Of a DNA stretch of 64,000 nucleotides, positions 1 through 18,349 are shown one piece after another. This stretch comes from Minisyncoccota bacterium. Its GTDB lineage: Bacteria; Patescibacteriota; Minisyncoccia; JAHIHE01; JAGLIN01. Both the position numbers and the translations under genes were made by a program. The notes under the pieces are model-generated. The model searched no databases and was not told where the DNA came from. It worked only from the letters and a program-made list of their open reading frames with translations. Each line of letters starts with the position of its first letter. The first letter of the stretch is position 1. Location: positions 6,071 to 70,070 of the forward strand of contig JAGLIM010000024.1 in NCBI GenBank assembly GCA_023142995.1. Reading direction: 5' to 3'.

Positions 1-224
1 CAAAAGCAAAAGTAAAGTATATATTTTTGAGTTATAACAACGAAGGAATAATGTCTTTAGAAGATATAAAGGAAATTATGAGTTTGCGCGGGGAGTATGG
101 TTATTTTACAAAAGACTATAACAGATTTAAAGCAGATAAATCTGAGAACAGAAATTACAAAGCAAATAAAACAACGGAATATTTACATTATGTTGTTTGT
201 GATTCTGCAAAAATTGGTTTATAA
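1..224 (+). CDS. hypothetical protein, 3' end (reading frame open to window start)
   Basis: Frame 3 is open from base 3 with no stop until TAA 222-224. A perfect hairpin plus T-run terminator follows directly. Confidence 0.3.
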   Translation, partial: KAKVKYIFLSYNNEGIMSLEDIKEIMSLRGEYGYFTKDYNRFKADKSENRNYKANKTTEYLHYVVCDSAKIGL

Positions 225-246
225 CTCTCTCAAAATTTACATAAAA

Positions 247-272
247 AAGAGGAATAAGATCCTCTTTTTTTG
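247..272 (+). terminator. intrinsic terminator
   Basis: AAGAGGA-ataaga-TCCTCTT followed by TTTTTT. Confidence 0.6.
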
Positions 273-324
273 TACTTGTTTTTACTGTTCTATGTATGTT
301 TTGTATTTTATGATGTAAAAATAC

Positions 325-358
325 TTGACATATATTTTATTTATGCTAATCTATAAAT
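325..358 (+). promoter_or_regulatory. candidate promoter of lexA (TTGACA -35 at 325-330, A/T-rich -10 region, ATG at 359 with almost no leader)
   Basis: TTGACA hexamer lies 29 nt upstream of the ATG with TATAAAT just before the start. The exact -10 is ambiguous. Confidence 0.35.
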
Positions 359-1039
359 ATGGAGATTTCAAAGCTTACTAAAAAACAACGAAAAGTATTC
401 GATTTAATAGAGTCGTATTTTAATAAATATGGCTGTTCTCCTACAATCACTGAATTAAAAGAAGCATTAGCCGTCAATTCTTTACGAACTGTTGTTCAAT
501 ATCTTGAAGCACTAGAGAAAAAAGGATTTATTTATCGCAAACATAATCAAAAAAGAGGTATAGAACTTGCAAACATAGGAACGACAACGGATTTTGACAC
601 AATATTATTGCCAGTCGTTGCGTCTGTTGGATGCGATGATGCAAGCATATTCGCGGATGAAAAGATAGATGAATATATAACCATAGATAAAAATTTTATT
701 CCCGATGGGAAAAGTATTAAGGATATGGTGGTGGTTAAAGCAATAGGCGCGAGTATGCAAGAAGCGGGAATCAGTTCAGGCGATTATGTATTAGTAGAAA
801 AAATTGATACTGCTCAAGCACAAGAAAACGATCGCGTAGTGGCAATAATAGATGATAACATTGTTATAAAAAAACTTCATTTTGCAAAAAATGCCATAAT
901 CCTAAACCCCGAATCAAAAAATAAACATTACAAAGCGATAATAATGAAAAGAGATTTTTATATTCCAGGGCGGGTAGTGGATGTTATTAAAATGAAACCT
1001 GATTTAGAAATTAAATATATACCAATAGAAAATAATTAA
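359..1039 (+). CDS. lexA: LexA repressor (S24 peptidase)
   Basis: N-terminal winged-helix LexA-type DNA-binding region. C-terminal S24 motifs: Ala-Gly cleavage site region, GASM catalytic Ser, VIKKL Lys. Confidence 0.85.
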   Translation: MEISKLTKKQRKVFDLIESYFNKYGCSPTITELKEALAVNSLRTVVQYLEALEKKGFIYRKHNQKRGIELANIGTTTDFDTILLPVVASVGCDDASIFADEKIDEYITIDKNFIPDGKSIKDMVVVKAIGASMQEAGISSGDYVLVEKIDTAQAQENDRVVAIIDDNIVIKKLHFAKNAIILNPESKNKHYKAIIMKRDFYIPGRVVDVIKMKPDLEIKYIPIENN

Positions 1040-1056
1040 CTAATCTAATCTAAAAC

Positions 1057-1308
1057 ATGGAAAATAAAGAAAGAGCCGTTGAGGCTTTAGAAAAAATTGA
1101 AAAGGTAATTGACGAAATAAGAGATATGTTCCCTGATATTAAAAAAGAGCAGATTAAAATTTTTGTTAAGAATAAGAAATATAATGATCCTGTTAAAATA
1201 TTAAAAAAAGTTGATAGGATAATTATAAATTATAACGAAAGCAACGCTGAAAGAAAATTGGAAAGTCTATTAGGATTTTTAGGTATCACTGTTAAAAAAG
1301 AAAAATAA
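1057..1308 (+). CDS. hypothetical small protein downstream of lexA
   Basis: 83-aa ORF 17 bp after the lexA stop. Its 3' end is partially duplicated just downstream (aaattggaaagt...ttagg repeated at 1256 and 1316). Confidence 0.45.
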   Translation: MENKERAVEALEKIEKVIDEIRDMFPDIKKEQIKIFVKNKKYNDPVKILKKVDRIIINYNESNAERKLESLLGFLGITVKKEK

Positions 1309-1437
1309 AAAACTAAATTGGAAAGTTTTAAGGGTTTTAGAGCATGAAATAATAAAAAATTTTGATAAAACAATTAATAGAATAATTGTTTTTTTAGAAA
1401 GTAAAAATAATTAAACAATATTTAAGTATTTAAAATA

Positions 1438-4400
1438 ATGGATAATATAAGCCAAATCATTTCACCAGACCAATTTTCTAAACTTTGTAAGCATCTTTTT
1501 GCTGCTGAATTTGATGATTTTCAAACTATTGATGATAGCGGTGGCGATAAAGGAAATGATGGGTATTCAGAAAAGCAAAAAACACTTTTTCAGCTTTACT
1601 GTCCCAAAAAACCAAATAAAGCGACCGATTCAAAATATAAATTAAAAATAAAAAGGGATTTAGATAAAGCAAAAGAACTTGTTGATTCTGGAAAATATAT
1701 TATTGAAAAATGGATTTTTGTTACCCCCGCGGAACTGCGAGAGGATGTTCATACTTATATTAGAACAGAGGCTGCGGAGAGAGGGTTTATTGGTATAGCG
1801 TGGGCAAGTTCCAAGTTGATAGTATTTTTTACAAAGCATTCCAATTTACGAAGTCAATTTCCAGATTTAATTCAGCCAGACATTGAACAGAAAATAGATT
1901 TATTAGATTCAAAAATTATAGGGCATACGGAATCAATCAATAATGTCAAGAAGAAATACCGAACGAAGTTGGAACAAAATTATCAACGACGTATTAACGA
2001 AGCAAAGATAAAAATAGATGATGAAAAAAACGAAGCAGCAAAAAAGGAATATGAAACAATTTTAAGAGATTTAAACTCGGAATCAGAAAAAATAGACCCG
2101 CATCTTTTTTTTCGAGTTCATAATAATTTAGGTGCTTGTGAATTAAATCTCGGAAACACAAAAGAAGCAGCGAAATTTTTTGAAAAAGCTTATTCGTTTA
2201 AACCAGACCAATCAATAGCAATTGCGAATTATGCTTTATCAAAATCCTTAGAAGATAATCCAAAAGAAGGGCTGGCGATAATTGAGGATCTGTTAAAAAA
2301 GCATCCTACTGATAATCACGCGATCTCTGTTAAGGCAAATATTCTGTACACTTTAGAAAGATATGAAAAGTTGATACCATTCCTGAAAGAAAAAGGAGAA
2401 ACAGTGTTGTCGTGCTGGTATAAGGGATTTGAAGCAATGTCCAAGGATGACTACGATACCGCAATTTTCTGTTTTGAGAAAGTTATTCATCTTGAACCAA
2501 AAAATATTAAAGCGTACTTTTTAGCTGCTCAAAATGTTATGATCGGGTCAAGAGAATTTGTTAAGAATAATGCTTTTCTGCCTGATAAAATATCTTCTGC
2601 TATAAAAGAAAAATTCACGAAAGCTATTTCTTGGTTAAAAAAGGCAGTTGAACTTTTACAAGATAAGGAACAGAATAAGGAACAGAAAGCTGATTTAGAG
2701 ATGGCATATACTAATTTATCTGGCTGCTTTGTTGCTCTTGGTTTATTTGATGAGGCAATCGAATTTGCGTTAAAAGCTATCTCTGTTGATCCCATATCTC
2801 CCACCCCTTTTCTTAATAAAGGGATAGCTCAACTAAAACTTGGTAAGCATAAAGAAGCAATAAGTAGTTTTAAAAAATATAAAGATTTAGGAGGAGACGA
2901 ATTTAATGTGGATAGGCATAGTGCTTTTTGTTCTTTGAGAACTGGTGATTTAGATACCGCGGAAAAAATAATTATTCCCTTATTAGAACAAAAAAAAGAT
3001 TTAGATTTGGATGTTGCAGAACTTGGAGTGGAGTTATACTCAAGAAGATTAGACAATGACAAGTCAGAAGCGTTATTAAAAAAATTGGAAGAAAACTTTT
3101 CTGACAATTCTCAAGCGTTACGAATTCGTGCTGCACATCTTCAAAGATTAGGAATGTCGGGCGTGGAATTATTACTTCAGAAGGCATTGGAAAGTTCAAA
3201 ATCAGAATCGGAAAAAATGTTGGCTGAAATGGATTTAGCTGATTTTTTATACAGCACAAAAGATTATTCCCGCGCTGCAGAAATATATCAAAGATATATT
3301 AACATTAAAGAAGCAACTACAGGAACTCTTAAATATGCTGAATGTCTGTATAGCTCAGGACAATACGGAAATCTCTTAAAATGGATAGGTACATTAGGCA
3401 CATCTGTGCGTGAACATTCTTTAATTCAACAGGTAGAAGCATACTCAAATCTTTACTTGGGTAATCTTGAAAAAGCATCCTCTTCTTTCAAAAAACTTTT
3501 TGAAAAAACCTCAGACAATCTTAAATACCTCGTATTCTATGGAATGTGTAGATTTAGATTGGGCAAAGAACATGAGGCAAAAAAAGCTTATGATGCCGTA
3601 AAAAATAGAGTAATTGAAACTGATGATGTTGTGATACTATCAGGCGGTTATGAATTTATTGGGGAATGGAAAATTGCATTGGAGCTTACTTATAAAGCTT
3701 TAAAAAACGATTCCAATAATCCAAAAGCTCATCTTGTTTACATTTTTACATTTTTACGTAGAGAACAAGTGGAAGAAAAAGATTTTGAAGATAAATATGT
3801 AAAACTATTTCAAAAATCAATTAGCGAATTTAGTAAAAGATTTCCCGAAGAAAAAGCACTACAAACTTTTGAAGTAAAAGATAAAGACATTAGTCCCATG
3901 TTAAAAATGGTTGATCAGTTAGCAGAGTCAACGGAAAATGCAACTGGGCTTTATAGAGAGTCTAGGGTTCCGCTTGCTGTTATTCCAAAGTTTACAAACA
4001 GAAAACCATTTGATGTTTGGGTTGCCTTTACCAAAATGCCAGATGTTGGGATAAAAATTTTATTTGGTTCGCCAGATGAGATTTCAACAGAAGCTTTAAC
4101 GATTAAAGAGTACTACGACAATTCTGTTGTTGTTGATATTTATCCATTATTTCTTCTGACTCACTTCAATCAGCTTGAATTATTACCAAAACTATTTAAG
4201 AAAATTTATGTGCATCAAAGCGTAATTGATGAATTAACAGAATCAATCGACGAACATAGAATATCGGTGCGCAAAGGACAAACAATTTTTGGAAAAATTA
4301 ATGGTCAGCACAAGTTAATTGATATTCCTCCAGAACAAGTACAAAAAACAGTTGCTCTGCTAGAAAAAGTTAGAGATTTCTTAAGCAGGGATAAATCTTG

Positions 4401-5031
4401 CAAAATTCACGGATTATCCAAAGAAAGGTCGGAAGATGAACGCAATTTAATTAATGCTCTTCATGAAACAACAAAAAATAGTGTTTTTCTTGCTGAAGAC
4501 CTTAATTTACCTATTTATTGTGATGATCGCATATTGCGAGTTATTTTAAAAAATGAACACAAAGTAAAATCTTTCTCTACTCAATCTTTAATCAATTTGG
4601 CGCAAACAAAAGGGGTGATATCGCTTGATAAGCGATTTGAGTTGCAGAAAGAAATGATAGGACTTAAATATGAATTTCTTCCAATAGATGCGACTTTTAT
4701 ATATTATTTTTTAAAAAAGGCAAACTATAAGATAGAGAAGATACAAGATATAATTTTTACACTTGTGCAAAAAGAAACAAGTATTCAATCTCTGGAAGTA
4801 GTACTTGCTGATCTTTTCTTTCTACTTTTAATTGAACGGTTAATAGACAACAAAACAAAACTTAAAATATTTAGAAGTATATTATCGCAAGCTTCGCTAA
4901 ACCATTGTTTAGATAATATAGAAGAAGGAATTTTTATGAACCTTCAAAAAAAAGTAAAACCTGAAAAACATAAACAATTAAAAGATATGCTTAAATTATT
5001 TTTTCGTGATTTACACGGTTCGTGCAGTTAA
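1438..5031 (+). CDS. large multidomain protein: N-terminal Mrr-like PD-(D/E)xK nuclease fold, central TPR repeats, C-terminal PIN-like domain
   Basis: N-terminus FSKLCKHLFAAEFDDFQTIDDSGGDKGNDGY...LFQLYCPKK matches the Mrr_cat D-x-G-x-D-G...Q-x-K pattern. There are multiple TPR-like 34-aa repeats. The C-terminus VVVDIYPLFLL...VIDELTE...FLAEDLNLPIYCDDRIL resembles PIN acidic motifs. No P-loop is seen. Confidence 0.7.
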   Translation: MDNISQIISPDQFSKLCKHLFAAEFDDFQTIDDSGGDKGNDGYSEKQKTLFQLYCPKKPNKATDSKYKLKIKRDLDKAKELVDSGKYIIEKWIFVTPAELREDVHTYIRTEAAERGFIGIAWASSKLIVFFTKHSNLRSQFPDLIQPDIEQKIDLLDSKIIGHTESINNVKKKYRTKLEQNYQRRINEAKIKIDDEKNEAAKKEYETILRDLNSESEKIDPHLFFRVHNNLGACELNLGNTKEAAKFFEKAYSFKPDQSIAIANYALSKSLEDNPKEGLAIIEDLLKKHPTDNHAISVKANILYTLERYEKLIPFLKEKGETVLSCWYKGFEAMSKDDYDTAIFCFEKVIHLEPKNIKAYFLAAQNVMIGSREFVKNNAFLPDKISSAIKEKFTKAISWLKKAVELLQDKEQNKEQKADLEMAYTNLSGCFVALGLFDEAIEFALKAISVDPISPTPFLNKGIAQLKLGKHKEAISSFKKYKDLGGDEFNVDRHSAFCSLRTGDLDTAEKIIIPLLEQKKDLDLDVAELGVELYSRRLDNDKSEALLKKLEENFSDNSQALRIRAAHLQRLGMSGVELLLQKALESSKSESEKMLAEMDLADFLYSTKDYSRAAEIYQRYINIKEATTGTLKYAECLYSSGQYGNLLKWIGTLGTSVREHSLIQQVEAYSNLYLGNLEKASSSFKKLFEKTSDNLKYLVFYGMCRFRLGKEHEAKKAYDAVKNRVIETDDVVILSGGYEFIGEWKIALELTYKALKNDSNNPKAHLVYIFTFLRREQVEEKDFEDKYVKLFQKSISEFSKRFPEEKALQTFEVKDKDISPMLKMVDQLAESTENATGLYRESRVPLAVIPKFTNRKPFDVWVAFTKMPDVGIKILFGSPDEISTEALTIKEYYDNSVVVDIYPLFLLTHFNQLELLPKLFKKIYVHQSVIDELTESIDEHRISVRKGQTIFGKINGQHKLIDIPPEQVQKTVALLEKVRDFLSRDKSCKIHGLSKERSEDERNLINALHETTKNSVFLAEDLNLPIYCDDRILRVILKNEHKVKSFSTQSLINLAQTKGVISLDKRFELQKEMIGLKYEFLPIDATFIYYFLKKANYKIEKIQDIIFTLVQKETSIQSLEVVLADLFFLLLIERLIDNKTKLKIFRSILSQASLNHCLDNIEEGIFMNLQKKVKPEKHKQLKDMLKLFFRDLHGSCS

Positions 5032-5195
5032 TAGAAAGAACGAAAATTATTCACTCAAAAAAATTTGAACTTTTGTAAAAAACAAGACAAAATCTTACTT
5101 TGCATTTGTATAGAACTGTGCAATTTTGATTCTGTTTAATCTGTTTTTTTATATGTGCAAGAACCATAATATTATTTTTTTTCCTTGGTTAATAA

Positions 5196-5299
5196 GTTGC
5201 TTACCCTCTCCAACTTCCCCTCAACTCTCTCCCAATTCTCTAAAATCCCAACCCAAACCACTGGGAAATTGTTCCCAACTGTATCCTGTCGCCCCGACA
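5196..5299 (+). repeat. R1 CT-rich intergenic repeat, copy 1
   Basis: ccctctccaacttcccctcaactctctcccaattctc.aaaatccc.acccaaaccac.gggaaattgttcccaact..atcctgtcgccccgac is shared with copies at 6613, 7476, 8662 and 10543. Confidence 0.8.
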
Positions 5300-5503
5300 C
5301 ACATAGATATTTTGAAAATTAACGCAAGAGCGGATAAATTTTTTTATGACGAACCTAGGCTAAAAAGAAATTATCGCAAAAAGACATGGCAAATTTTAGG
5401 CGTTTAACGGACATGTATTAACAGTTTAGAGAATCATTCACTTCTGAATGTTTAAAAAATTGCTAAAGCGCTATAAATAAATTCTAAATATTTATGTAAC
5501 ATT

Positions 5504-5899
5504 ATGAAAGATTTTGAAGCCTCTCAACACAGAGAAAACCCTCCAAGGAAAGTTGAAAATATTTTTGTGGAGAGCGATGCTCAAAGAAAACCAGCTGAGA
5601 ACAAAAAAAGCGAAAATGAAAATGCAATTGCGAATTGGCCAATTGAAAAAATAATGCGTCGTCTCTTGCGAGAAGACAAACATTTTAATCAAGACATAGT
5701 ATATGAAACTTTAATGAAAGAATTGCCAGCAGAAGAAATAGAGACAAAAATAATGGAAGACTATATGGGCTGTACTGGAGAGTCAATAATTGATAAAGTA
5801 CGTCAAGCTTTGGGCGATGACTATGTTCGATTGTTAATTGAACCTTCGATCGGTACGAGAGTGGACGAGTTGATTGTATTTGCTCAAATAGAAGCTTGA
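5504..5899 (+). CDS. hypothetical protein
   Basis: 131-aa ORF in a cassette-like slot directly after R1 copy 1. Confidence 0.45.
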   Translation: MKDFEASQHRENPPRKVENIFVESDAQRKPAENKKSENENAIANWPIEKIMRRLLREDKHFNQDIVYETLMKELPAEEIETKIMEDYMGCTGESIIDKVRQALGDDYVRLLIEPSIGTRVDELIVFAQIEA

Positions 5900-5908
5900 G
5901 AAGGGAAG

Positions 5909-6508
5909 TTGCCGACACCTATAGAATTAAGGAGAAAGTTTAAGGAATCACTTGGCAAGAAAAAGGTTTACAGAGTTGCGACATTAACAGAGCAAGAATT
6001 ACAAGAAATAAAACAAGATGGATTTCTTGCAAACTATTATCGTGTTCGAAGTGAAGAGGAGATTTTGCAGAATGAGGACGGATATGAAAGCGTTGAGTAT
6101 AACCTTTCCAACTTAATAGGCAGAGTCAATATTCATGCTGGAGGGTTTGCAAGCACTAAAGATTCTATGCTAATCAGTACAAGCGATTTTCCAGAGATGG
6201 CGCAGTATGCAGCATTTGTACAACTTAAAGATGATTGGCAAGAAAGAGAAAAAACAGGGCAAAGACTTTATTCAATTCCTATTGAAATTGATGAGTTTCG
6301 GAACATCCGATATGGCAAATATTTACCACATCACATTAAAGCAGAAGGTACTTGGCATAGTAATCAAAAAGATATTCCTTACAACGATCCAGGTATTGAA
6401 TCATTTGTGGAGTTTAGGATCTCTTCAGAAAATATTTTAACCGACGAGATTAGACAGATTGATACAACACAAATTCCAAATTTTGAATTTGTACCAAAAG
6501 GAAAGTAG
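5909..6508 (+). CDS. hypothetical protein (TTG start, SD-like GAAGGGAAG upstream)
   Basis: 199-aa ORF starting 10 nt after the previous stop. No in-frame ATG near the start. Confidence 0.45.
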   Translation: MPTPIELRRKFKESLGKKKVYRVATLTEQELQEIKQDGFLANYYRVRSEEEILQNEDGYESVEYNLSNLIGRVNIHAGGFASTKDSMLISTSDFPEMAQYAAFVQLKDDWQEREKTGQRLYSIPIEIDEFRNIRYGKYLPHHIKAEGTWHSNQKDIPYNDPGIESFVEFRISSENILTDEIRQIDTTQIPNFEFVPKGK

Positions 6509-6612
6509 TTGCATCCTAAATCAGCATGGTATTTTCCTGTATTTTGTTCAAATTCAAGTGGTGTTTAGTAATTGCGACACTTATATTTGCAACTCAAAAC
6601 TTATAATAAAGC

Positions 6613-6706
6613 CATCAATCTTTCCACTCTTTCCAACTTTCCCTCAACTCTCTCCCAATTCTCCAAAATCCCCGCCCAAACCACTTACATCCTGTTGCCC
6701 CGACAA
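6613..6706 (+). repeat. R1 CT-rich repeat, copy 2 (internal ~18-bp deletion)
   Basis: Same consensus as copy 1 but lacking the cgggaaattgttcccaac segment. Confidence 0.8.
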
Positions 6707-6717
6707 AAAATATCGTA

Positions 6718-6756
6718 AGAGACTAGGTTTCCAATTGGAAACCTAGTCTCTTTTTG
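6718..6756 (+). terminator. intrinsic terminator (15-bp perfect stem)
   Basis: AGAGACTAGGTTTCC-aatt-GGAAACCTAGTCTCT followed by TTTT. Confidence 0.7.
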
Positions 6757-6779
6757 AGAGTTATGGTGCATGCGGGTCA

Positions 6780-6808
6780 TTGACAAGGATGGGATTTTCT
6801 GATAGACT
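6780..6808 (+). promoter_or_regulatory. sigma70-like promoter (TTGACA-17-TAGACT)
   Basis: TTGACA at 6780-6785, 17-bp spacer, TAGACT at 6803-6808. GCATGC lies 7 nt upstream of the -35. Confidence 0.55.
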
Positions 6809-6881
6809 ACACGGTCATGGTAAATCGTGGTAAAAATGTTGTTCTTTTAAATAAAAGGAAGAAAAATAATCTTTTTCGGGC

Positions 6882-6926
6882 GGATAAAATATTCACGAAT
6901 ACTAAAGTATATGTAATATTTTATCC
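6882..6926 (+). promoter_or_regulatory. 12-bp perfect inverted repeat in the 5' leader of the 6964 gene
   Basis: GGATAAAATATT-N21-AATATTTTATCC lies between the promoter at 6780 and the SD-preceded ATG at 6964. Confidence 0.35.
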
Positions 6927-6963
6927 ATCCGAAAGTAATAGTGGTGGAACCGGAGGTGCTCAA

Positions 6964-7356
6964 ATGAGCGATAGTGAACATGAGAAATTTCAAGATAAAA
7001 ATATAGAGATGGGAAGAAAAATCGCTGGATTGCCAGTAAGCGCGTCTTTAAACGAAATCGTCATTGCTCTTGCTAAGAAGGGAGAATATGCAGAGGCAGT
7101 TGAACTGCTCTTTGGATCAGGGAGAGAGCCACCTTTGTCAGATGATCAGATGGGGTTTGGTGTTTATATTCGGCTGTGGATTGGAACCTACCCCGATATG
7201 ATTGAGAAAATCGTGAATGCGTATCATTGGACTTCAGAAGAGGTAAGTGCCAAGAGAAAGAAAGGAGGCTTTAAAATCCACGTATATCCAGATGAAGCAT
7301 TTATGATTGAGGAGCCCGTTGCAACTGAGCTTCTAACAATTTTGTTGCCACAATAA
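6964..7356 (+). CDS. hypothetical protein (start chosen at SD-preceded ATG; ORF track starts at 6817)
   Basis: GGAGGT lies 6 nt before ATG 6964. Upstream in-frame sequence is AT-rich leader containing the inverted repeat. Confidence 0.45.
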   Translation: MSDSEHEKFQDKNIEMGRKIAGLPVSASLNEIVIALAKKGEYAEAVELLFGSGREPPLSDDQMGFGVYIRLWIGTYPDMIEKIVNAYHWTSEEVSAKRKKGGFKIHVYPDEAFMIEEPVATELLTILLPQ

Positions 7357-7475
7357 TGCTATATAAAATTCTTCTTTCGCAGTTCTCAAATATTATAAAG
7401 TGCTGGTCATATTAAATGTGGCTAGCCATTTTTTTTGTAAAGTTTTTTGTAAAGTGTAATTATATTTTTTACTTT

Positions 7476-7586
7476 ATCAACCTTTCCACCCTCTCCAATT
7501 TCCCCTCAACTCTCTCCCAATTCTCCAAAATCCCCACCCAAACCACCGGGAAATTGTTCCCAACTACATCCTGTTGCCCCGACAAG
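7476..7586 (+). repeat. R1 CT-rich repeat, copy 3 (most complete)
   Basis: atcaacctttccaccctctccaatttcccctcaactctctcccaattctccaaaatccccacccaaaccaccgggaaattgttcccaactacatcctgttgccccgacaag. Confidence 0.85.
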
Positions 7587-7589
7587 AAA

Positions 7590-7623
7590 AATAACCTTTT
7601 TATCTGAGAGGTTATTTTTTTTG
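7590..7623 (+). terminator. intrinsic terminator
   Basis: ATAACCT-loop-AGGTTAT followed by TTTTTTTT. Confidence 0.65.
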
Positions 7624-7671
7624 TAGATTTAGAAGCTTCAAGTTTTTTAGTGGTGTGAGATGGCGGAGCTA

Positions 7672-7700
7672 TTGACAAAGATTATGTTTTTGGTATAATG
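7672..7700 (+). promoter_or_regulatory. consensus sigma70 promoter (TTGACA-17-TATAAT)
   Basis: TTGACA at 7672-7677, 17-bp spacer, TATAAT at 7695-7700. Confidence 0.7.
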
Positions 7701-7766
7701 AAAGGTCAGTTAATTTGGAAATAAAAAATAATTTATCAAATTCTGACACAATGGAGTTGCAAAGAA

Positions 7767-8441
7767 ATGATCAAATCAACATTTATTGACAATCTTGAAT
7801 CTATCGGGGAAGGGATCTTTGAAATCTTGAAAACATTAAACATATCTTCAGATACTAACTTTGAATTAGATATGTTTATGTTCAGGTTTTGTGAGAAAAA
7901 AGGTATAATTCGTTTCTGGAAAAAAGATCAGAATGAAATTATTTCAGAATATGACATTGTAGAAAATGGAATCTCAGTTCTAAAGCATGAAAGCATTGAA
8001 TCTTTGACATATGTCTCAACACCAAGAATTGAAGTAGGAATTTGTCAAAAAGATTCTCCTCAGGTTAGATTTTATTGGAAAAAAAATGACAATGTTGGAG
8101 AATTAGTTCATGTCAAAGTTGATCTAGGAGAAAACAAAAGGAGGGAAGGAGATAGAATATTTGTGGGTTACGGTAGAGATATTAACGACTTCAAAGCTCG
8201 TAGAGGAGCGAGCATGGTTAGTGAGAAGATTAGTATACCGCCAAATTTACCTTCGGTTTTATCAGGAGATAAAATATTAGGACATAAAATTCTTTGGAGC
8301 ATTGTTTTTGAACCTAAGGCAAAAAAGATTTTCGATGAATCTGCGCTTCAAGAGTTTCGTAAAGAAATTGATAAACTAATTTCTGATAAAAATCTGCGCT
8401 TCGAGAGTTTTATAAAGAACAAAGGTTTTATAAAAGATTGA
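7767..8441 (+). CDS. hypothetical protein
   Basis: 224-aa ORF. Its 3' end contains a ~53-bp tandem duplication (8338-8462) spanning the stop. Confidence 0.5.
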   Translation: MIKSTFIDNLESIGEGIFEILKTLNISSDTNFELDMFMFRFCEKKGIIRFWKKDQNEIISEYDIVENGISVLKHESIESLTYVSTPRIEVGICQKDSPQVRFYWKKNDNVGELVHVKVDLGENKRREGDRIFVGYGRDINDFKARRGASMVSEKISIPPNLPSVLSGDKILGHKILWSIVFEPKAKKIFDESALQEFRKEIDKLISDKNLRFESFIKNKGFIKD

Positions 8442-8532
8442 TAAAGAAATCTCTGATAAACAAGATTAAAACCATACTATAATAGTTCTTTCGGAATGTT
8501 TGAACTATAAGGATATTTTTTTGGTCTAATTC

Positions 8533-8570
8533 AATGGAGTAAAGGATTCAACCTGATCTCCATTTTTATT
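8533..8570 (+). terminator. intrinsic terminator, T2 module (AATGGAG...CTCCATT + T-run)
   Basis: The stem flanks an 18-nt loop. The same module recurs at 12716 and, diverged, at 14321. Confidence 0.55.
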
Positions 8571-8661
8571 TGTCCCAAATCGAATAATATCTCAAAAATG
8601 ATTGTACGAGAATCTTTTTTGACTCTTGTTATTTATATGATTTTAGTTAATTTTTGATTCA

Positions 8662-8778
8662 TCTCATCAACCTTTCTACTCTCTCCAACTTCTCCTCAAC
8701 TCTTTTCCAATTTTCCAAAATCCCCACCCAGACCACCGGGAAATTGTTCGGGGCTACATCCTGTCGCCCCGACAAAAG
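8662..8778 (+). repeat. R1 CT-rich repeat, copy 4
   Basis: Same consensus. This variant ends gttcggggctacatcctgtcgccccgac. Confidence 0.85.
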
Positions 8779-8808
8779 AAATAATCCTTTAGAGGGTTAT
8801 TTTTTGTA
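8779..8808 (+). terminator. intrinsic terminator
   Basis: ATAATCC-tttagag-GGTTAT (one G.U pair) followed by a T-run. Confidence 0.5.
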
Positions 8809-8843
8809 TAGAGTTAGAAACTTTGAATTTTATATGCGTACCA

Positions 8844-8871
8844 TTGACAAAATCTTTCTTTAATATATTAT
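8844..8871 (+). promoter_or_regulatory. sigma70-like promoter (TTGACA-16-TATTAT)
   Basis: TTGACA at 8844-8849. Candidate -10 TATTAT at 8866-8871. Confidence 0.5.
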
Positions 8872-8975
8872 TGAATGGTTCAAGGAACGAACCGACAATG
8901 CTATTTTCAGTGTTGGATAAAGCAGTGTCCTTTGACAATTTATGAAGGAAAAAATATACGGAGGTATGGAAGAAG

Positions 8976-10190
8976 ATGAACTTTTTAGATCTGGAAACAG
9001 AAACGATAAGAAGGGAAATGGAAGAACAGATGCAAGTTTGCCCTAAATGCGGGATAAAGCAACCTCTAAATGAGGTGTGGATTCAGAAGAAGAGTTGGAA
9101 GGGCAAATATAGTTCTCAAAACCTTAAAAAACTATGCCCGTCATGTGACGAAGATTATAGAATATTCGTAGAATATGGTGGACAGTTTGAAAATTTGAAA
9201 ACACTCGATGATTTCAGGGTGGTTTTTGAAGAATTTTTGGTAAGTCCCAAAGTGGAATTATCGGCAGTTGAACGTAGTTATCAGGTTTTAAAAGAGTTTG
9301 CGGGATTAAGAGTGCAAATTGCAATTGAAGCCCAGAAATTTTCGGGACGATTTAGTTCAAGAAGCAAGCGAATGGATGAGATATATCCAATTAGTCAAAG
9401 CGTTTTTGCTCCTCAGATAACCGAAGAATTCGGTGAAAAAGCAGGAGGTGTAGGATGGCAAAAATTCTTGATGAGCCAAGTGGTGGAAGTAAAAGCGGTC
9501 AAATCAGGACTGGAAAGGGAGATTGCCAAACAAGTTGGCTTTTATCCAATATGGAATATGTATGCAAAACACATCCCAGGAATCGGGGAATGGTTGACAG
9601 GATATTTGATTGCTAGTATTGGCGATCCAAAAAGGTTTCCTGATACAGGACATCTTTGGGGCAATGCAGGTCTAAGGGTCACAAAGGAAAATTTGGCTCA
9701 ATCGCGTACGCGAGGTACAAAACTAAATTATGATCCGTTGCTCAAAACCGTGATTTGCTTTATTCTGCCTCAGTCTTTGCAGTGGCAAAAAAGCAGGTTT
9801 CCTAATTCGCCTTATTCTCAGCTTTTCGAAAGTGTAAGACTCAAGGAACAGGAAAAGGCCATAAATGCTCATCCTGCAATATGTAACATAAGAGGATGTA
9901 AAGAAACCGAGATTGTAAACCTTGGATTTAAGAATGATTCAAAAGGAGGAAGAACATTCCAAGGATTCTGCTGTAAAAAAACGCTTGGTACGAAAAAAGA
10001 GCACAAATTCTTCAATCCTGCCCACATTCAAGCGAGAGTTATGCGAGAAGTTGGCAAAAAGTTCTTTGCTGATTTTTGGCATACAATGTTGTATTTTGAA
10101 AGTGAGAATCCGGATATATACGGCAGAGAAGGTGAACACGCGGCAAACGAAAGAATACTCTGGGTGTTTGAACAAGCATTGAAAGCATAA
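8976..10190 (+). CDS. zinc-ribbon / helix-hairpin-helix DNA-binding protein, possibly related to the IS110-family transposase C-terminal domain
   Basis: CPKCG...CPSCD zinc ribbon. HhH motif HIPGIGEWLTGYLIASIGDPKRFP followed by LWGNAGL, as in the IS110 Transposase_20 domain. Second Cys cluster CNIRGC...GFCCKK near the C-terminus. GGAGG lies 11 nt upstream of the ATG. Confidence 0.5.
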   Translation: MNFLDLETETIRREMEEQMQVCPKCGIKQPLNEVWIQKKSWKGKYSSQNLKKLCPSCDEDYRIFVEYGGQFENLKTLDDFRVVFEEFLVSPKVELSAVERSYQVLKEFAGLRVQIAIEAQKFSGRFSSRSKRMDEIYPISQSVFAPQITEEFGEKAGGVGWQKFLMSQVVEVKAVKSGLEREIAKQVGFYPIWNMYAKHIPGIGEWLTGYLIASIGDPKRFPDTGHLWGNAGLRVTKENLAQSRTRGTKLNYDPLLKTVICFILPQSLQWQKSRFPNSPYSQLFESVRLKEQEKAINAHPAICNIRGCKETEIVNLGFKNDSKGGRTFQGFCCKKTLGTKKEHKFFNPAHIQARVMREVGKKFFADFWHTMLYFESENPDIYGREGEHAANERILWVFEQALKA

Positions 10191-10212
10191 GTCGAAGCCT
10201 AAGACCATAAGT

Positions 10213-10475
10213 TGGGTGTGAAAAACCAGAATTGTTTTGTCTTTCAAGACCATGAGTATCCTGTGTAAAACCACAACGGATTTGTCTTTGGTGGTGTTAG
10301 ATGAAAATTTTACACCACTAAAATTAAGACCATTCAATCGCTATGAGAAATCAGTAAAAAAATGTTTCTTAAGGCCATTTCCCAATTGTGAAAAACCAAC
10401 AAGTCGTTGCTCACTAAAGCCAGCATTCATGTGTGAAAAATTCATGAAGCGTTTTAGAACAATGTCAAGCCTCGG
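10213..10475 (+). repeat. degenerate tandem ~45-bp repeats carrying TGTG(A/T)AAAACCA cores
   Basis: Cores at 10217, 10261, 10386 and 10431. Units are ~70% identical. Confidence 0.35.
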
Positions 10476-10542
10476 AGAAATAATAAACAAAAATTCTTCG
10501 GGGTTATCTTTTTATATTTTTTTGACTGATTATTTTTATCTA

Positions 10543-10657
10543 TCTCATAAACCTTTCCACTCTTTCCAACTTTCCCTCAACCCTATCCCAATTCTCCAAA
10601 ATCTCCACCCAAACCACCGGGAAATTGTTCGGGGCTACATTTTGTTGTCCCGACAAG
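10543..10657 (+). repeat. R1 CT-rich repeat, copy 5
   Basis: Same consensus as copies 3 and 4. Confidence 0.85.
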
Positions 10658-10682
10658 AAAAATAACTTTTCGTTTTGGTATA

Positions 10683-10711
10683 TTGACATTTTGGTAAAGA
10701 TATGCTAAATT
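10683..10711 (+). promoter_or_regulatory. sigma70-like promoter (TTGACA-17-TAAATT)
   Basis: TTGACA at 10683-10688. -10 at 10706-10711. Confidence 0.5.
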
Positions 10712-10757
10712 GACTAGTCAACAGAATTAAGTAAAGCTGTTGTTGGAGGAACCAAGG

Positions 10758-11177
10758 ATGAGAGATTGTAGTGAAATTAGAATTGTACCTTTAAATGGTG
10801 ATGAAAATGAAACGGAGATATTAATTGTTTTCATTGCAATGGATTATGCAAAGGAGTCTATAAGAAAAGACTTTGAGCATGAAGCATTGCTTTATAATGA
10901 TGTAGGTATTCCCGGACTGCGAATAAAAGAACTGATGCATTCATCGTTAATTAGCTGTAAGCAACATTATAAAGAAGAAGAGTATGCTTCAAAAGATGTT
11001 TTTGAAGAATTCGTACAGTATTTTAAGGATGACTGTAGAAAAATAAATGAAAAAGAAAGATACAGGATCATAAAAATAACAGATGATCAAAAGGAGATCA
11101 AATTTGAACAAGAAAAGAAACAAGAAAATAGACTTTTAAGATTTATAAATAGACTTTTAAAAGTCCTAAGGATGTAA
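10758..11177 (+). CDS. hypothetical protein (start at SD-preceded ATG; ORF track begins at TTG 10740)
   Basis: GGAGGA at 10744-10749 lies 8 nt before ATG 10758. Confidence 0.45.
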   Translation: MRDCSEIRIVPLNGDENETEILIVFIAMDYAKESIRKDFEHEALLYNDVGIPGLRIKELMHSSLISCKQHYKEEEYASKDVFEEFVQYFKDDCRKINEKERYRIIKITDDQKEIKFEQEKKQENRLLRFINRLLKVLRM

Positions 11178-11228
11178 ATTTTGCGATTTATATCTTTTTT
11201 ATTTTTTACTTTATTAATTCTTTTATCA

Positions 11229-11258
11229 ATTTTTTCCAAATTCTCCAAAATCCACATT
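11229..11258 (+). repeat. R1 repeat remnant (partial)
   Basis: ccaaattctccaaaatccaca matches the central part of R1. Confidence 0.4.
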
Positions 11259-11299
11259 TAAATAGATAAATAAAAAATAGCTTCTGTAATCCACAGAAA

Positions 11300-11953
11300 C
11301 TATATCAATGATTTTGGTAGCATATTCTCAGATTTCCATTTAGCTCTTAATTCTTCCAAGTTCATATTTATGTCTTGGTAGAAAGTGGGTTTTAAGGATA
11401 CTGGGTTGGCTACAAATTTGAAGAAGATTTGTGCTAGTGGTTCATCTTCAATTGGTAAGAAGAACCAAAAATCGTTCAAATTGATGATCTCAACAGTCCA
11501 GCTATTGTAGTATCCTGGATTGCCAAGTCCAGCATCAAGCGCAATACTAATTCCCCATCTTACTGTAGTGGATCTAGCACGAACCTCGCTTGTTATCCAT
11601 GGCACAGTACTGCCGATGAATTCAACTGTATGCCCCAGTATTCTTTCTATGGGTGCTAGCAAAATTCCCTTTTTGCCTGTTTTCTTTTCTCTTGAATCTT
11701 TCATTTCAAATTCATTTCTCCATTAAGCAATCGTTTTTGCCATAAATGGTCCTTCAAAAACTTTAGAAGGATCGTGTGGTGTTACGATTGTGTTTGGTGG
11801 AAATTTTATAACTCGATAAAAGTCTGGAGCCACGCGTAGATCGCAAGCAGTTCCAGTTAACATTTCAGGATAAAACGGGTCTATAACAATATATCCTTTT
11901 TCTCGAGCTTCTAAAATTGTTTCATCGGAGAGAACTCCTCCTGTTTCAAACAT
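11300..11953 (-). pseudogene. dcd: dCTP deaminase/dUTPase-family gene interrupted by one in-frame TAA
   Basis: N-terminal ORF (11723-11953) carries the DLRV...F motif. C-terminal ORF (11300-11704) carries ARSTTVRWGISIALDAGLGNPGYYNSWTVEIINL, the Dcd/dUTPase core. Both are in the same frame, separated only by TAA plus 6 sense codons. Confidence 0.55.
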
Positions 11954-12044
11954 TATTTATTACCTCCTAATAACTTCAATTCGTATGTTATGTTCGTCAT
12001 AAATTATATGACATCATATTAGATTATCATTAAATTAGTAATTT

Positions 12045-12072
12045 GTCAATGGTAAACACACTCACCATTGAC
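12045..12072 (+). promoter_or_regulatory. operator-like perfect inverted repeat overlapping a -35
   Basis: GTCAATGGT-N10-ACCATTGAC. The right arm overlaps TTGACG of the promoter at 12068. Confidence 0.4.
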
Positions 12073-12096
12073 GAAGATAAAATACTATGATAGACT
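12068..12096 (+). promoter_or_regulatory. sigma70-like promoter (TTGACG-17-TAGACT)
   Basis: It shares the TGATAGACT -10 region with the promoter at 6780. Confidence 0.5.
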
Positions 12097-12157
12097 GTTT
12101 AGTCATGATAAAACCGTGACAAAAATATTGTTTATTTAATTTAGGAGCGTGAAATAA

Positions 12158-12664
12158 TTGACTGAAAAAGTAAACATAGATGAAATAATAGCATCTTTAA
12201 AAACAAATGAGAAAATAGATGTTATTAGAATTATAGAGAAAGTAAGTACCTATCGTAGGATTGTCGAGGTTTTTCTTGTTCCAGCGAAAGTAGAAACTTC
12301 AAATGGAATAGTTGATCTTGATGGTCTGCAGAAACTTTTAGAGGGATTAGTTTCTTGCCAGATGGAAGTTCGGGAGTTCGAACAAGTCGGAGACGATATC
12401 TATTTTGGATACTTACGTGCTAACATAAATGTTATGGCAGCCGTAAACAGAGTGGAAGGAGAAAAATGGGAGAATTTTACAATTCATTTGTATCCAAATA
12501 TTTTAATTGGAATTCCTGCAGCTTATAGTGAAGATAATATTTATTATAGATCAGAGATAACGAGAGCTCACTATTATCAAACGATGATAGCAGCATACTT
12601 TATGGCACCTCATTTTGGTGAAATTGGTTTGTTGTTATCTAATTTAGCTGAAAAGAAAGGATGA
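12158..12664 (+). CDS. hypothetical protein (TTG start, AGGAG 10 nt upstream)
   Basis: 168-aa ORF. Confidence 0.45.
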   Translation: MTEKVNIDEIIASLKTNEKIDVIRIIEKVSTYRRIVEVFLVPAKVETSNGIVDLDGLQKLLEGLVSCQMEVREFEQVGDDIYFGYLRANINVMAAVNRVEGEKWENFTIHLYPNILIGIPAAYSEDNIYYRSEITRAHYYQTMIAAYFMAPHFGEIGLLLSNLAEKKG

Positions 12665-12715
12665 TCAGTAAAATATTTCAACATTGGTATTTCTTTTTTT
12701 AAAGTCTATAAATCT

Positions 12716-12752
12716 ATGGAGCAAAGGGTTCAACCTAACCTCCATTTTTATT
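12716..12752 (+). terminator. intrinsic terminator, T2 module copy
   Basis: ATGGAG-caaagggttcaacctaac-CTCCAT followed by TTTTTATTT. Near-identical to the 8533 module. Confidence 0.55.
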
Positions 12753-12840
12753 TATCTTAAATTGAAAAATATTTCATAATTATTTTTAAAAATCTTGGTT
12801 TGTACTTAATTTATTTTATTAATATTTCTATTTTCTCTAA

Positions 12841-12904
12841 TTTTTCAAAATTCTCATTTAAACTATTGAAAATTTCATTGATTTGACAAGAAAAATATCG
12901 TAAG
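12841..12904 (+). repeat. R1 repeat remnant plus degenerate copy of the 6718 terminator
   Basis: ttttcaaaattctcatttaaa...gacaagaaaaatatcgtaagaaactagatttctaattggaaacctagc parallels 6690-6750. Confidence 0.5.
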
Positions 12905-12969
12905 AAACTAGATTTCTAATTGGAAACCTAGCTTTTTTTGAGAGTATGCATGCAAGAGTATGCATGCTA

Positions 12970-12998
12970 TTGACAAAAATGATGTTTTCTGTTATATT
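12970..12998 (+). promoter_or_regulatory. sigma70-like promoter (TTGACA-17-TATATT)
   Basis: Preceded by a duplicated GTATGCATGC motif. Confidence 0.5.
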
Positions 12999-13038
12999 TC
13001 TCAGTTGTAATAAAATTTTGATAGAAATCGTTCTTTTA

Positions 13039-13086
13039 CAAACATTCCTTGCGGGTCAAATGTAATAAAACAAGCTTTATTACATT
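13039..13086 (+). promoter_or_regulatory. 21-bp perfect inverted repeat (hairpin) in the 5' leader of the 13145 gene
   Basis: TTGCGGGTCAAATGTAATAAA-acaagc-TTTATTACATTTGACCCGCAA. No T-run follows. Confidence 0.45.
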
Positions 13087-13144
13087 TGACCCGCAATATG
13101 GGAATAAATAAAATAATAAAAAATTCAGAAGAGGTAGTATAAAA

Positions 13145-14380
13145 ATGTATAAAAAAAGTATTTTTGTTGTTATGATGGCTATTATTGCTATTATTGCTAC
13201 TGTTGTTGTGATAGCAGCATCTAGCTATGAAGATTGGAAGGAGATGCCAGAGAATAGAGATCCATATCACATAGAAGGAGTGATCTGTGATATGGAAAAT
13301 GACTTACCAGCTAAGGATGTTTCTGTCACTGTTTCTGATGAAACGGGGAGAATATTTGAAACAAAAACTAACACAGATGGCATGTTCAGTTTTGATATTC
13401 TCGCTTGTATTTTGTGTGAATCTCAGTATCAAACCATTTCGACGGAAACAGTAGATCATGATTCTGTCGATTCAATTTCACAGGTTATGATGTATGATGT
13501 ATGGATGTGCAGTGATCCCTGGATAGTATCTATCAAGATAGAAAAAGATGGATACAGCTCAATTGAAGAAACATTTTCATTAGGAAAAGAAGGTGGGTTC
13601 TATAATGTTTTTATTTCTAAGATTGATATTAAAGATAGAGCATCTTCATGGATAGCTCTTTATGAGAAAAACGAATCAGAATTTGTCTCAGAAAAGTTTA
13701 GCAATGCTGAATTCTGGCTAAATTCTGCAAGAGCAGAGCCAGAGTTGTTCAAGATAGATTTTGTCCGAGATAATGCATGCAAGGCAAATATCTCTCTCGA
13801 AGAATTAGGCACATCAAATGATGAGCTTTTAAATCTTGAGAGACAAGCATATATAAGCAATGCTGAATTTTGGTTGGAATCTGCAAGAAATGATCCTGAA
13901 TTGTTCAAGATAGATTTTGTCCGAGATAATGCATGCAAGGCAAATATCTCTCTCGAAGAATTAGGCACATCAAATGATGAGCTTTTAAATCTTGAGAGAC
14001 AAGCACGTATAAATAATGCTGAATTCTGGCTAAATTCTGCAAGAGCAGAACCAGAATTGTTCAAGATAGATTTTGTCCGAGATAATGCATATTATGCGTA
14101 TGTTTCTATTGAATATATAGGCACATCAAATGATGAGCTTTTAAATCTTGAGAGACAAGCACGTATAAATAATGCTGAATTCTGGCTAAATTCTGCAAGA
14201 GCAGAACCAGAATTGTTCAAGATAGATTTTATCAGAGATAATGCATGCAAGGCAAATATCTCTCTTGAAAAGTTAGGCACATCAAATGATGAGCTTTTAA
14301 ATCTTGAGAGAATGGCAAATGGAAGGAAGAAGACAATAGCAATTAGTTCTTCACCTTCCTTTTTATTTGTCTTAAATTGA
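13145..14380 (+). CDS. secreted or membrane-anchored repeat protein with carboxypeptidase-regulatory-like domain
   Basis: N-terminal hydrophobic anchor, then VTVSDETGRIFETKTNTDGMFSF (CarboxypepD_reg-like), then four near-identical 46-aa repeats NAEFWLNSARAEPELFKIDFVRDNACKANISLEELGTSNDELLNLERQARI. Confidence 0.6.
   Translation: MYKKSIFVVMMAIIAIIATVVVIAASSYEDWKEMPENRDPYHIEGVICDMENDLPAKDVSVTVSDETGRIFETKTNTDGMFSFDILACILCESQYQTISTETVDHDSVDSISQVMMYDVWMCSDPWIVSIKIEKDGYSSIEETFSLGKEGGFYNVFISKIDIKDRASSWIALYEKNESEFVSEKFSNAEFWLNSARAEPELFKIDFVRDNACKANISLEELGTSNDELLNLERQAYISNAEFWLESARNDPELFKIDFVRDNACKANISLEELGTSNDELLNLERQARINNAEFWLNSARAEPELFKIDFVRDNAYYAYVSIEYIGTSNDELLNLERQARINNAEFWLNSARAEPELFKIDFIRDNACKANISLEKLGTSNDELLNLERMANGRKKTIAISSSPSFLFVLN
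13690..14310 (+). repeat. 4 x 138-bp tandem coding repeats
   Basis: Units are almost identical at the nucleotide level. Confidence 0.8.
14321..14369 (+). terminator. terminator-like hairpin + T-run (diverged T2 module) lying inside the last codons of the 13145 ORF
   Basis: GGAAGGAAGAAGAC...GTTCTTCACCTTCC then TTTTTATTTG. The same ttatttgtcttaaattgaaaaatattt tail as at 12746. Confidence 0.35.
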
Positions 14381-14566
14381 AAAATATTTTTAAAATGATT
14401 ATACTAGGATCTTTCAGTTTTCATAGAGCCTGAGGCAGATTTTTAGATCTTGTCTCTTATTTTTGATTAAGAGGTAATTCAATTTAAAATAAAAATCCCG
14501 CAGATCATCATATTCGAAAATAGATTATCTACGGGTAAGTTTTCTTATATATTGTTTGATCTAATG

Positions 14567-18142: not shown

Positions 18143-18216
18143 TAAAAGTTTCTGGTGTTTCTGGTGTTGTCTATTTTAAAAATAAGATATATAATTATAT
18201 TAGTTATTATATCTAA

Positions 18217-18279
18217 ATATCGTTTGACTTTATGGAGAACTTTGCGCGATAAATTTCTCCACAAGGTCGAAAAATATTT
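18217..18279. repeat. R2 hairpin repeat, dispersed copy
   Basis: atatcgtttgactttatggagaac-loop-tttctccacaaggtcgaaaaatattt. Same family as 60924-61101 and 62591-62797. Confidence 0.75.
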
Positions 18280-18349
18280 GTAGGTTAAAAAATATTTGTA
18301 GGTTAAAAAATATTAATATATTTATACAATAAAAATAAGAGCAATGTAA

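Follow-up and report, generated by a model that had tools for sequence, protein, structure and literature searches.

A 64,000-nt stretch of contig JAGLIM010000024.1 from a Minisyncoccota bacterium (assembly GCA_023142995.1, positions 6,071 to 70,070 of the forward strand; hereafter the window) carries a gene for a 1197-aa protein built of a restriction endonuclease (REase) fold, tetratricopeptide repeats (TPR) and a PIN domain. We consider it probable that the product is a stand-alone immune protein, directed against phages or other mobile elements, and that it represents a variant of the TGP (TPR-GreA/B-C-PIN) conflict system which has a REase-fold N-terminal effector and no GreA/B-C domain. 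That the protein is defence-related can be stated with good confidence.

The TGP system was predicted by Kaur, Iyer, Burroughs & Aravind 2021 (eLife 10:e70394, PMC8195603), which is also the source of the Pfam family PF20698. TGP proteins join a variable N-terminal effector to a constant region of TPRs, GreA/B-C and PIN; 13 such effectors are described, including EAD10, REase, HNH, PNPase, TIR, SIR2 and peptidases, and the genes mostly stand alone (PMC8195603). According to the proposed mechanism, GreA/B-C docks on the secondary channel of RNA polymerase, the PIN domain cuts the extruded transcript, and the N-terminal effector is released as a back-up (PMC8195603). A relative with known activity is Agp of the Bab/Agp pair from E. 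coli ECOR25, which provides resistance to phage T5 by abortive infection (Ibarlosa et al., bioRxiv 10.1101/2024.11.07.622273).

A TPR and PIN core lacking GreA/B-C

The ATG start of the open reading frame (ORF; Table 1) is consistent with those of about 50 full-length orthologues (1180-1190 aa, 47-94% identity), whose source names are exclusively 'Minisyncoccota bacterium' and 'Candidatus Pacebacteria bacterium', that is, Candidate Phyla Radiation (CPR)/Patescibacteria. The family is rare, the orthologue search having returned 57 clusters among 5.8 billion proteins. From the N-terminus onwards, the protein consists of the REase fold, a helical connector, the TPR array, a helical linker, a PF20698-type PIN domain and a helical C-terminal domain. 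Neither terminus gave a significant match to PDB sequences, whether searched as a single sequence or as a profile, and the C-terminal 418 residues, used as query in a word-indexed search for homologues, retrieved nothing but fragments from the same clade.

The part that links the protein to the TGP system is its PIN domain. PF20698, described as 'PIN domain associated with the TPR-GreAB-C-PIN system', matches residues 898-1035 with 64.2 bits (E=1.9e-17, cutoff 27.8), and the AlphaFold2 (AF2) model of residues 770-1197 (predicted local distance difference test, pLDDT, 87; predicted template modelling score, pTM, 0.83) yields PAE2754 (probability 1.00), SMG6, VapC4 and also PRORP as PIN fold matches. 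An alignment of 39 orthologues shows no variation at the acidic residues D900, D931, D1029 and D1030, which canonical TGP members possess as well. The first ~45 residues of the domain match the PDC-S70 models of PADLOC (E=9e-7). The helical domain that follows contains two motifs, KET..QSL and NHD, which are common to canonical TGP proteins (sequences of P0196 and P0213-P0216; P and L numbers denote homologous proteins and loci, respectively). Upstream of the PIN domain, the stretch from about residue 188 to residue 730 is matched by many Pfam TPR models. Four features of TGP proteins are found together here: the PF20698 PIN domain, a TPR array upstream of it, a variable N-terminal effector on a constant core, and a gene that stands alone.

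What distinguishes the protein from canonical members is the domain that gives the family its middle name. P0196 (1309 aa), which is distantly related and has the same N-terminal module, possesses an insert of ~75 residues between the last TPR helix and the 'KYxKxFQ...RFP' helix, at a site where the window protein, P0050, P0072, P0088, P0092 and P0198 display a clean gap of ~72 columns in a MAFFT alignment. A profile of the insert, made from P0196 and P0213-P0216, has E. coli GreA (1grj_A residues 93-142, the C-terminal domain) as its top PDB match (E=1.3e-4), and P0214 gives a weak match to PF01272; the insert of these proteins is therefore a genuine GreA/B-C domain. The P0196 insert alone found no match in a single-sequence PDB search, the five-sequence profile being needed. 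This profile scores 101-136 bits on P0196 and P0213-P0216 versus -0.5 bits on the window protein, and it matches none of the orthologues of the latter. Furthermore, the AF2 model of residues 770-895 contains helices only and no FKBP-like beta domain. The rest of the constant core, namely the linker helices, the acidic residues of the PIN domain, KET..QSL and NHD, is as in canonical members. We conclude that the window protein and its ~50 orthologues from Patescibacteria lack the GreA/B-C domain. It is not supplied in trans either, since six-frame translations of the 64-kb window and of 18 homologue loci contain no match to the profile; a GreA gene sought for a control alignment was not found in the DNA searched.

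A portable nuclease-fold module at the N-terminus

The AF2 model of residues 1-225 has an alpha-beta-beta-beta-alpha-beta-alpha-beta core (pLDDT 84-94), the first elements of which (H10-24, E28-31, E41-44, E49-53, H64-84 and E91-95) follow the alpha-beta-beta-beta-alpha-beta order of PD-(D/E)xK nucleases. Its top fold matches in the PDB, as retrieved with Foldseek, are EcoT38I, the N-terminal nuclease of Avs4 (probability 0.98), Cap4, Nt.BspD6I and EcoO109I, with weak E-values of 0.02-0.4. At the sequence level, the PADLOC model of LmuA (PDLC03852) covers residues 6-218 (E=2e-12), and the Aga_REase-TIR model (Argonaute-associated REase) matches weakly. Among family members with the same module, P0090 matches the Mrr-like model of ZorD and P0072 shows a weak match to Mrr_cat.

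The residues conserved in this domain were read from 128 divergent members. D37 and D41, which form an Mrr-like 'DxGxDG' motif, are invariant (128/128), and K70, located in the helix after beta3, is conserved in all members but one (127/128); D74 and K77 are also among the invariant polar residues. The beta3 site of the (D/E/Q)xK motif, however, reads [A/Q]52-x-[Y/H/F]54, so that the canonical lysine is absent. Judging from these columns, catalysis by the module is plausible, with K70 acting as a relocated lysine.

The module is a portable, swappable effector. In P0006, P0009, P0010, P0021 and P0035 (1078-1082 aa), which are 60-73% identical to the window protein from residue ~137 onward, the nuclease module is replaced by an unrelated glycine-rich N-terminal peptide of ~25 residues, MMEAIFGWIIKKIGETAFGKMIGDALEEKF. 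Pfam gives no match for this peptide, which might serve as an adaptor, act as a membrane-active helix or, as in Agp, provide an amyloid-type signalling motif; no Bab/Agp-like motif is common to the short-N-terminus variant and its neighbour at L019, which is a restriction-modification (R-M) enzyme.

Several other proteins carry the module on different partners. P0051 (1077 aa) has an N-terminal nuclease module ~60% identical to that of the window protein on a quite different TPR/PIN core (PF20698 only 32 bits), which suggests that effector modules recombine between cores. The N-terminal domain family as a whole comprises 266 representative clusters and includes fusions to NACHT/STAND NTPases (P0071, P0105, P0190 and P0093). 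The largest class consists of proteins of 420-500 aa (about 61 of 148 representative proteins with the module; e.g. P0073, P0076, P0090 and P0096). The C-terminal ~300 residues of this ~450-aa class have no Pfam or PADLOC match, the LmuA model covering the N-terminal part only, and the class is an uncharacterised architecture.

An earlier, sequence-only reading of the window had proposed an Mrr-like PD-(D/E)xK N-terminus, a TPR array, a PIN-like C-terminus and no NTPase motif for an ORF of 1197 aa at 1438-5031. The ORF is present exactly as described, and the TPR array is borne out by the many Pfam models (best E=3.2e-20). Neither a Pfam scan nor a motif scan of the protein found an NTPase family or a Walker A/B motif, again in line with that reading. 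The nuclease fold proposed for the N-terminus holds, as judged from the AF2 model, the REase, Avs4 and Cap4 matches and the LmuA model, with the refinement that the beta3 lysine of (D/E/Q)xK is missing. The PIN domain is confirmed by PF20698 and by the fold matches; its placement at the extreme C-terminus is not, the helical domain of residues 1036-1197 coming after it.

Variable, defence-rich contexts and the lexA neighbour

Twelve distinct genomic contexts of the gene and its orthologues were examined. R-M genes adjoin the gene in six of them, and their type differs each time: an N6_N4 methyltransferase, a 389-aa gene and a Dam-type methyltransferase in the window and L008; an EcoO109I-type system in L001, with a 75-nt gap between RE_EcoO109I and the gene; an AlwI-type system (RE_AlwI) in L005; type I R-M with a ThsB-like TIR in L011-13; a DpnII-type system with AIPR in L015; and, in L019, an Eco57I/MmeI-type R-M enzyme whose gene overlaps by 7 nt that of the short-N-terminus orthologue (L019 2326-5562). 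At L018, BREX (PglZ, BrxL), SIR2 plus DUF87 (SIR2-HerA) and GmrSD are found directly upstream. Serine recombinases or transposase-type genes occur at L001, L005, L014, L015 and L019, and distant relatives are located on plasmids. At L017 the gene has inserted by itself, with uvrC/ddl on one side and the ATP synthase operon on the other, and L016 has no informative neighbours. In one genome the gene is split (P0049 and P0063), which shows that it is dispensable. When the 83-aa ORF upstream of the window gene and the other small neighbours were compared over the twelve contexts, no conserved small partner gene common to the lineages was found.

A swappable N-terminal effector, a constant core and residence in defence islands together form the signature of an immune protein and rule out a ubiquitous housekeeping gene. 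The sequence-only reading had taken the protein for a conflict system, with a sensor coupled to a nuclease, and had named ubiquitous housekeeping conservation as the observation that would speak against this. Such conservation was looked for and is ruled out by the variable contexts, the module swaps and the defence islands; the conflict-system reading itself is now well supported by the TGP-type PIN domain, the anti-phage relative Bab/Agp, the defence-rich variable contexts and the swappable effector. Nevertheless, a housekeeping factor of CPR bacteria in a narrower sense, that is, a TPR-scaffolded PIN RNase for RNA processing or quality control by analogy with SMG6 and Nob1, deserves consideration: SMG6 and PRORP are among the PIN fold matches, and the whole protein, TPRs included, is rather evenly conserved and of constant length in ~50 orthologues. 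We regard this as very improbable, given that synteny is not conserved, that the neighbours are defence genes or mobile elements, and that a gene this rare exists in a split copy, has swapped N-termini and shares its N-terminal domain with STAND immune-type proteins.

The frequent R-M neighbours raise the question of whether the protein is an accessory of the adjacent systems, for instance a back-up nuclease for cases when restriction fails, rather than an independent system. The immediate adjacency in half of the contexts, including the overlap at L019 and the short gap at L001, speaks for such a role. However, the R-M types (type I, DpnII, AlwI, EcoO109I, type IIG) are different in every case, which fits clustering in defence islands better than a specific partnership; moreover, six contexts are devoid of R-M genes and TGP genes mostly stand alone according to Kaur et al. 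(PMC8195603). An accessory role therefore appears unlikely to us, and an independent immune protein is the reading that we retain.

Two observations concern other neighbours. Glycosyltransferases of the GT4-conflict family (PF20706) adjoin two of the orthologues (L001 14738-15874 and L010 8660-9724), echoing the association of conflict-type GT4 domains with GreA/B-C systems noted by Kaur et al. (PMC8195603). Directly downstream of the orthologue at L003 lies a gene for a 123-aa protein (13630-14001) that is 31% identical to a distant 120-aa ORF of the window (51646-52008).

In the window itself, the gene is preceded by lexA and the 83-aa ORF. Over its first 5.3 kb the window shares 95-98% identity with L008, in which the complete order is N6_N4 methyltransferase, 389-aa gene, Dam-type methyltransferase, LexA, 83-aa ORF and the TPR-PIN gene; a terminator-like hairpin (243-270, terminator scan) follows the end of the Dam-type gene in the window. 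The product of lexA is a true LexA, as the sequence-only reading had it, and retains the motifs of the Ser/Lys dyad when its sequence is read directly. The SOS link which that reading drew from this neighbour is not supported. A lexA gene adjoins the gene in only two of the twelve contexts (window/L008 and L005-7), the other ten being without LexA, and in both it is associated with a Dam-type methyltransferase: the genes are adjacent in the window (1-1039) and L008 (7709-9602) and fused in L005-7. LexA accordingly tracks the methyltransferase and not the TPR/PIN gene. In L005, L006 and L007, the fusion is a 563-aa protein of LexA_DNA_bind, Peptidase_S24 and MethyltransfD12 (8207-9898, - strand), which adjoins RE_AlwI and is divergent from the orthologue. 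Fusion of a self-cleaving S24 repressor to an R-M methyltransferase is an unusual arrangement that may couple the control of R-M to DNA damage.

Regulation by LexA would make the protein an SOS-controlled nuclease: LexA would repress a unit of lexA, the 83-aa ORF and the gene, and DNA damage, caused for example by phage or failed restriction, would induce the two-nuclease protein. The three genes lie on the same strand with no terminator predicted between them, so that co-transcription from the lexA promoter is possible; LexA scores as an equivalog with its dyad kept; and the fusion of L005-7 divergently adjoins an orthologue. Against this stand the two contexts out of twelve, both linked to Dam-type genes, which make LexA more likely a member of the R-M cluster, and the lack of a recognisable operator. 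None of nine published LexA-box consensus patterns, which may not be those of CPR LexA, matches within 225-360 or 1030-1440, an interval that contains the region (1040 to 1437) where the sequence-only reading had suggested looking for one. The lexA promoter and the sequence preceding the gene have no motif in common. A perfect 8+8 palindrome lies at 1369-1390 and occurs nowhere else in the window, but 17% of composition-preserving shuffles of the AT-rich spacer match it. SOS control of the protein is, in our judgement, distinctly unlikely.

The small ORF directly upstream, whose existence the sequence-only reading had correctly indicated along with a cassette array downstream, seen here as small ORFs separated by repeats, could also be thought to neutralise the PIN/REase protein in the manner of a toxin-antitoxin module, PIN being the classic domain of VapC toxins. 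Yet the 83-aa ORF is confined to the window and relatives ~95% identical to it, no equivalent exists elsewhere, and scans of Pfam, PADLOC and TIGR models gave it no family match, antitoxin families included. We find this explanation extremely improbable.

The downstream array is punctuated by a C-rich intergenic repeat, copies of which lie on the + strand at 5180-5314, 6603-6737, 7465-7599, 8655-8789 and 10536-10670, with a degenerate copy near 11226. Each has the core TCAACTCTCTCCCAATTCTCCAAAATCCCCACCCAAACCAC, followed by a GGGAA-ATTG-TTCCC hairpin, and is situated ~115-200 nt upstream of the next + strand gene. At L008/L009, copies are found at 5480-5635 and 13769-13863, and in L008 they bracket the whole 8-kb block of R-M genes, LexA, the 83-aa ORF and the TPR-PIN gene. 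It is within the repeat that the window and L008 cease to be syntenic, so the whole 8-kb block may be a single unit of the cassette array. Apart from L008/L009, no homologue locus contains the repeat, and an Rfam scan of window positions 1-14000 gave no match. Further downstream, at 13703-14467, there are four tandem copies of another sequence with a 156-nt period (63-89% identical), mostly within the ORF 13145..14380 and with the last copy ~90 nt past its stop, so that 52-residue repeats are expected in the product of this ORF. Copies of a second repeat, ~91 nt long and containing an inverted repeat (GACTTTATGGAGAA ... TTCTCCACAAGGTC), are scattered over the window and stand in tandem near 61-62.7 kb.

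Table 1. Positions in the window of the gene, the parts of its product and the features around it.
Feature	Position	Strand	Basis
REase-TPR-PIN gene, 1197 aa, stop codon included	1438..5031	+	ORF list; ~50 full-length orthologues
Mrr-like PD-(D/E)xK-fold (REase) effector module, residues 1-140	1438..1857	+	AF2, Foldseek, PADLOC LmuA, conservation in 128 divergent members
Long helical connector between nuclease module and TPR array, residues 147-215	1876..2082	+	AF2 H147-194, H198-215, pLDDT 51-70
TPR array (scaffold, presumed sensor), residues ~185-780	1990..3777	+	Multiple Pfam TPR families, best E=3.2e-20
Site where canonical members hold ~75-residue GreA/B-C, residues ~779/781; none in window protein	3775..3780	+	MAFFT gap; profile score
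Conserved helical linker ('KYxKxFQ...RFP' helix onward), residues 781-895	3778..4122	+	AF2; alignment with P0196, P0088, P0092, P0198
PF20698-type PIN domain, residues 896-1035	4123..4542	+	Pfam, fold matches, invariant columns
C-terminal all-helical domain (~160 residues), residues 1036-1197	4543..5028	+	AF2 pLDDT ~90; motifs KET..QSL and NHD
3' end of Dam-type (MethyltransfD12) methyltransferase gene of R-M-like cluster	1..224	+	98% identical to L008, full gene there
lexA, 226 aa, upstream neighbour, judged no conserved partner	359..1039	+	TIGR00498 127.7 bits, cutoff 110.95
83-aa ORF, only in window and its ~95%-identical relatives	1057..1308	+	ORF list; family scans
First copy of ~105-135-nt C-rich intergenic repeat; synteny with L008 ends inside	5180..5314	+	Repeat scan, L008 comparison
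~91-nt repeat copies	18202-18292, 60913-61003, 61025-61115, 62584-62674, 62675-62765		

Proposed mode of action and relation to known systems

If the protein is indeed a TGP-type immune protein, its TPR solenoid would hold it inactive and serve as both scaffold and sensor. Once a protein of the invader, or a host complex that infection has altered, is bound, the nuclease modules would be released or assembled; the PIN domain would cut RNA and the REase-fold module DNA, and infection would be stopped through abortive infection or through destruction of the invader's nucleic acids. A trigger at the secondary channel of RNA polymerase cannot apply to this protein, because the polymerase-docking GreA/B-C domain is absent; with that domain missing, it would have to be the TPRs or the conserved helical domains that receive the trigger.

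A bolder extension of this scheme is that the REase-TPR-PIN proteins without GreA/B-C constitute a distinct TGP branch independent of RNA polymerase: a compact sensor in a single polypeptide, with DNase and RNase output and a trigger read by the TPR solenoid alone. Such a branch would recur in small defence islands of streamlined CPR bacteria, for which little defence other than R-M is known, and would in some lineages be placed under a DNA-damage-responsive repressor of the LexA/S24 type linked or fused to a Dam methyltransferase. Taken as a whole, we hold this proposal to be rather unlikely.

Several points weigh against an immune function of the kind proposed. The only experimentally tested relative, Agp, bears GreA/B-C and needs it for defence, as the point mutations S628L and L634P in that domain abolish protection (bioRxiv 10.1101/2024.11.07.622273); by analogy, a protein without GreA/B-C might function in another way or be a degenerate form. 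In the REase-fold module the canonical (D/E/Q)xK lysine is missing, and catalytic competence of the module is deduced only from the invariant D37, D41 and K70. The E-values of the fold searches are weak for the N-terminal and PIN models alike (0.02-0.05). Conservation along the TPR array is fairly even (about 65-75% column identity), without the hypervariability of some immune sensors. Finally, contexts L016 and L017 show no defence neighbours.

The family is one of the larger predicted single-gene immune families and is almost unstudied. Both its proposed mechanism and the sole experimental data, those on Agp, depend on the docking of GreA/B-C onto RNA polymerase. The clean loss of a domain which the only tested relative cannot do without turns the present clade into a natural experiment and hence into a useful test of the family mechanism: if these proteins still defend, sensing resides elsewhere, in the TPRs or the conserved helical domains, and the model of the family would have to be revised. 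The gene also adds a defence candidate for CPR/Patescibacteria, whose immune repertoire is poorly known, and proteins labelled only 'tetratricopeptide repeat protein' can now be given a domain-level description.

Among known systems, Avs4 (PDB 8dgf), Cap4 (6vm5) and LmuA of Lamassu (PDLC03852) have the same REase fold at the N-terminal effector position of an immune sensor. They differ in what drives them, namely a STAND ATPase, a SAVED/cyclic-nucleotide receptor and the SMC-like LmuB, respectively, none of which is found in the window protein; the beta3 lysine, too, is replaced in the latter. Membership in Lamassu was rejected, as the LmuA model matches the N-terminal part only and there is no LmuB among the neighbours (lexA, the 83-aa ORF and ORFs of 131-224 aa), and membership in STAND/Avs was rejected for want of an NTPase family match and of Walker A/B motifs. 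The PIN domain resembles, in sequence and fold, PDC-S70 (a single-gene PIN candidate of PADLOC) and VapC-type toxins (PDC-S70 models, PAE2754); these are, however, proteins of ~130-160 aa, whereas the PIN domain studied here sits in a 1197-aa multidomain protein without an antitoxin. VapBC membership was likewise discarded, the 83-aa upstream ORF being absent from all other lineages.

Agp is, like the window protein, a TGP protein with TPRs and a PIN domain, and its family couples a phage sensor to a death effector. Its N-terminal amyloid motif signals to a separate pore-like partner, Bab, whereas the window protein has a fused nuclease effector and no partner gene.

With canonical TGP proteins, the window protein shares the PIN family (64 bits), the order of domains, the REase effector and a stand-alone gene in defence-rich contexts. 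'REase+TPR+GreAB-C+PIN' is among the commonest architectures in the source table (e.g. ABA73572.1 of Pseudomonas fluorescens Pf0-1), and a REase effector is present in about a third of the listed members (PMC8195603). The differences are that canonical proteins have the GreA/B-C domain, from which the family takes its name and on which its proposed mechanism is based, and that their table contains no Patescibacteria entries (PMC8195603), the clade to which the window belongs. Architectures without GreA/B-C are nonetheless listed, though not discussed, by Kaur et al.: Figure 2-source data contains 3 rows of 'REase+TPR+PIN' and about 180 of 'TPR+PIN', examples of such rows being NLD36189.1 of Desulfatiglans (1360 aa) and BBZ79150.1 of Mycolicibacterium (1186 aa) (PMC8195603). 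Compared by architecture string alone, these rows have the same GreA/B-C-less make-up as the window protein.

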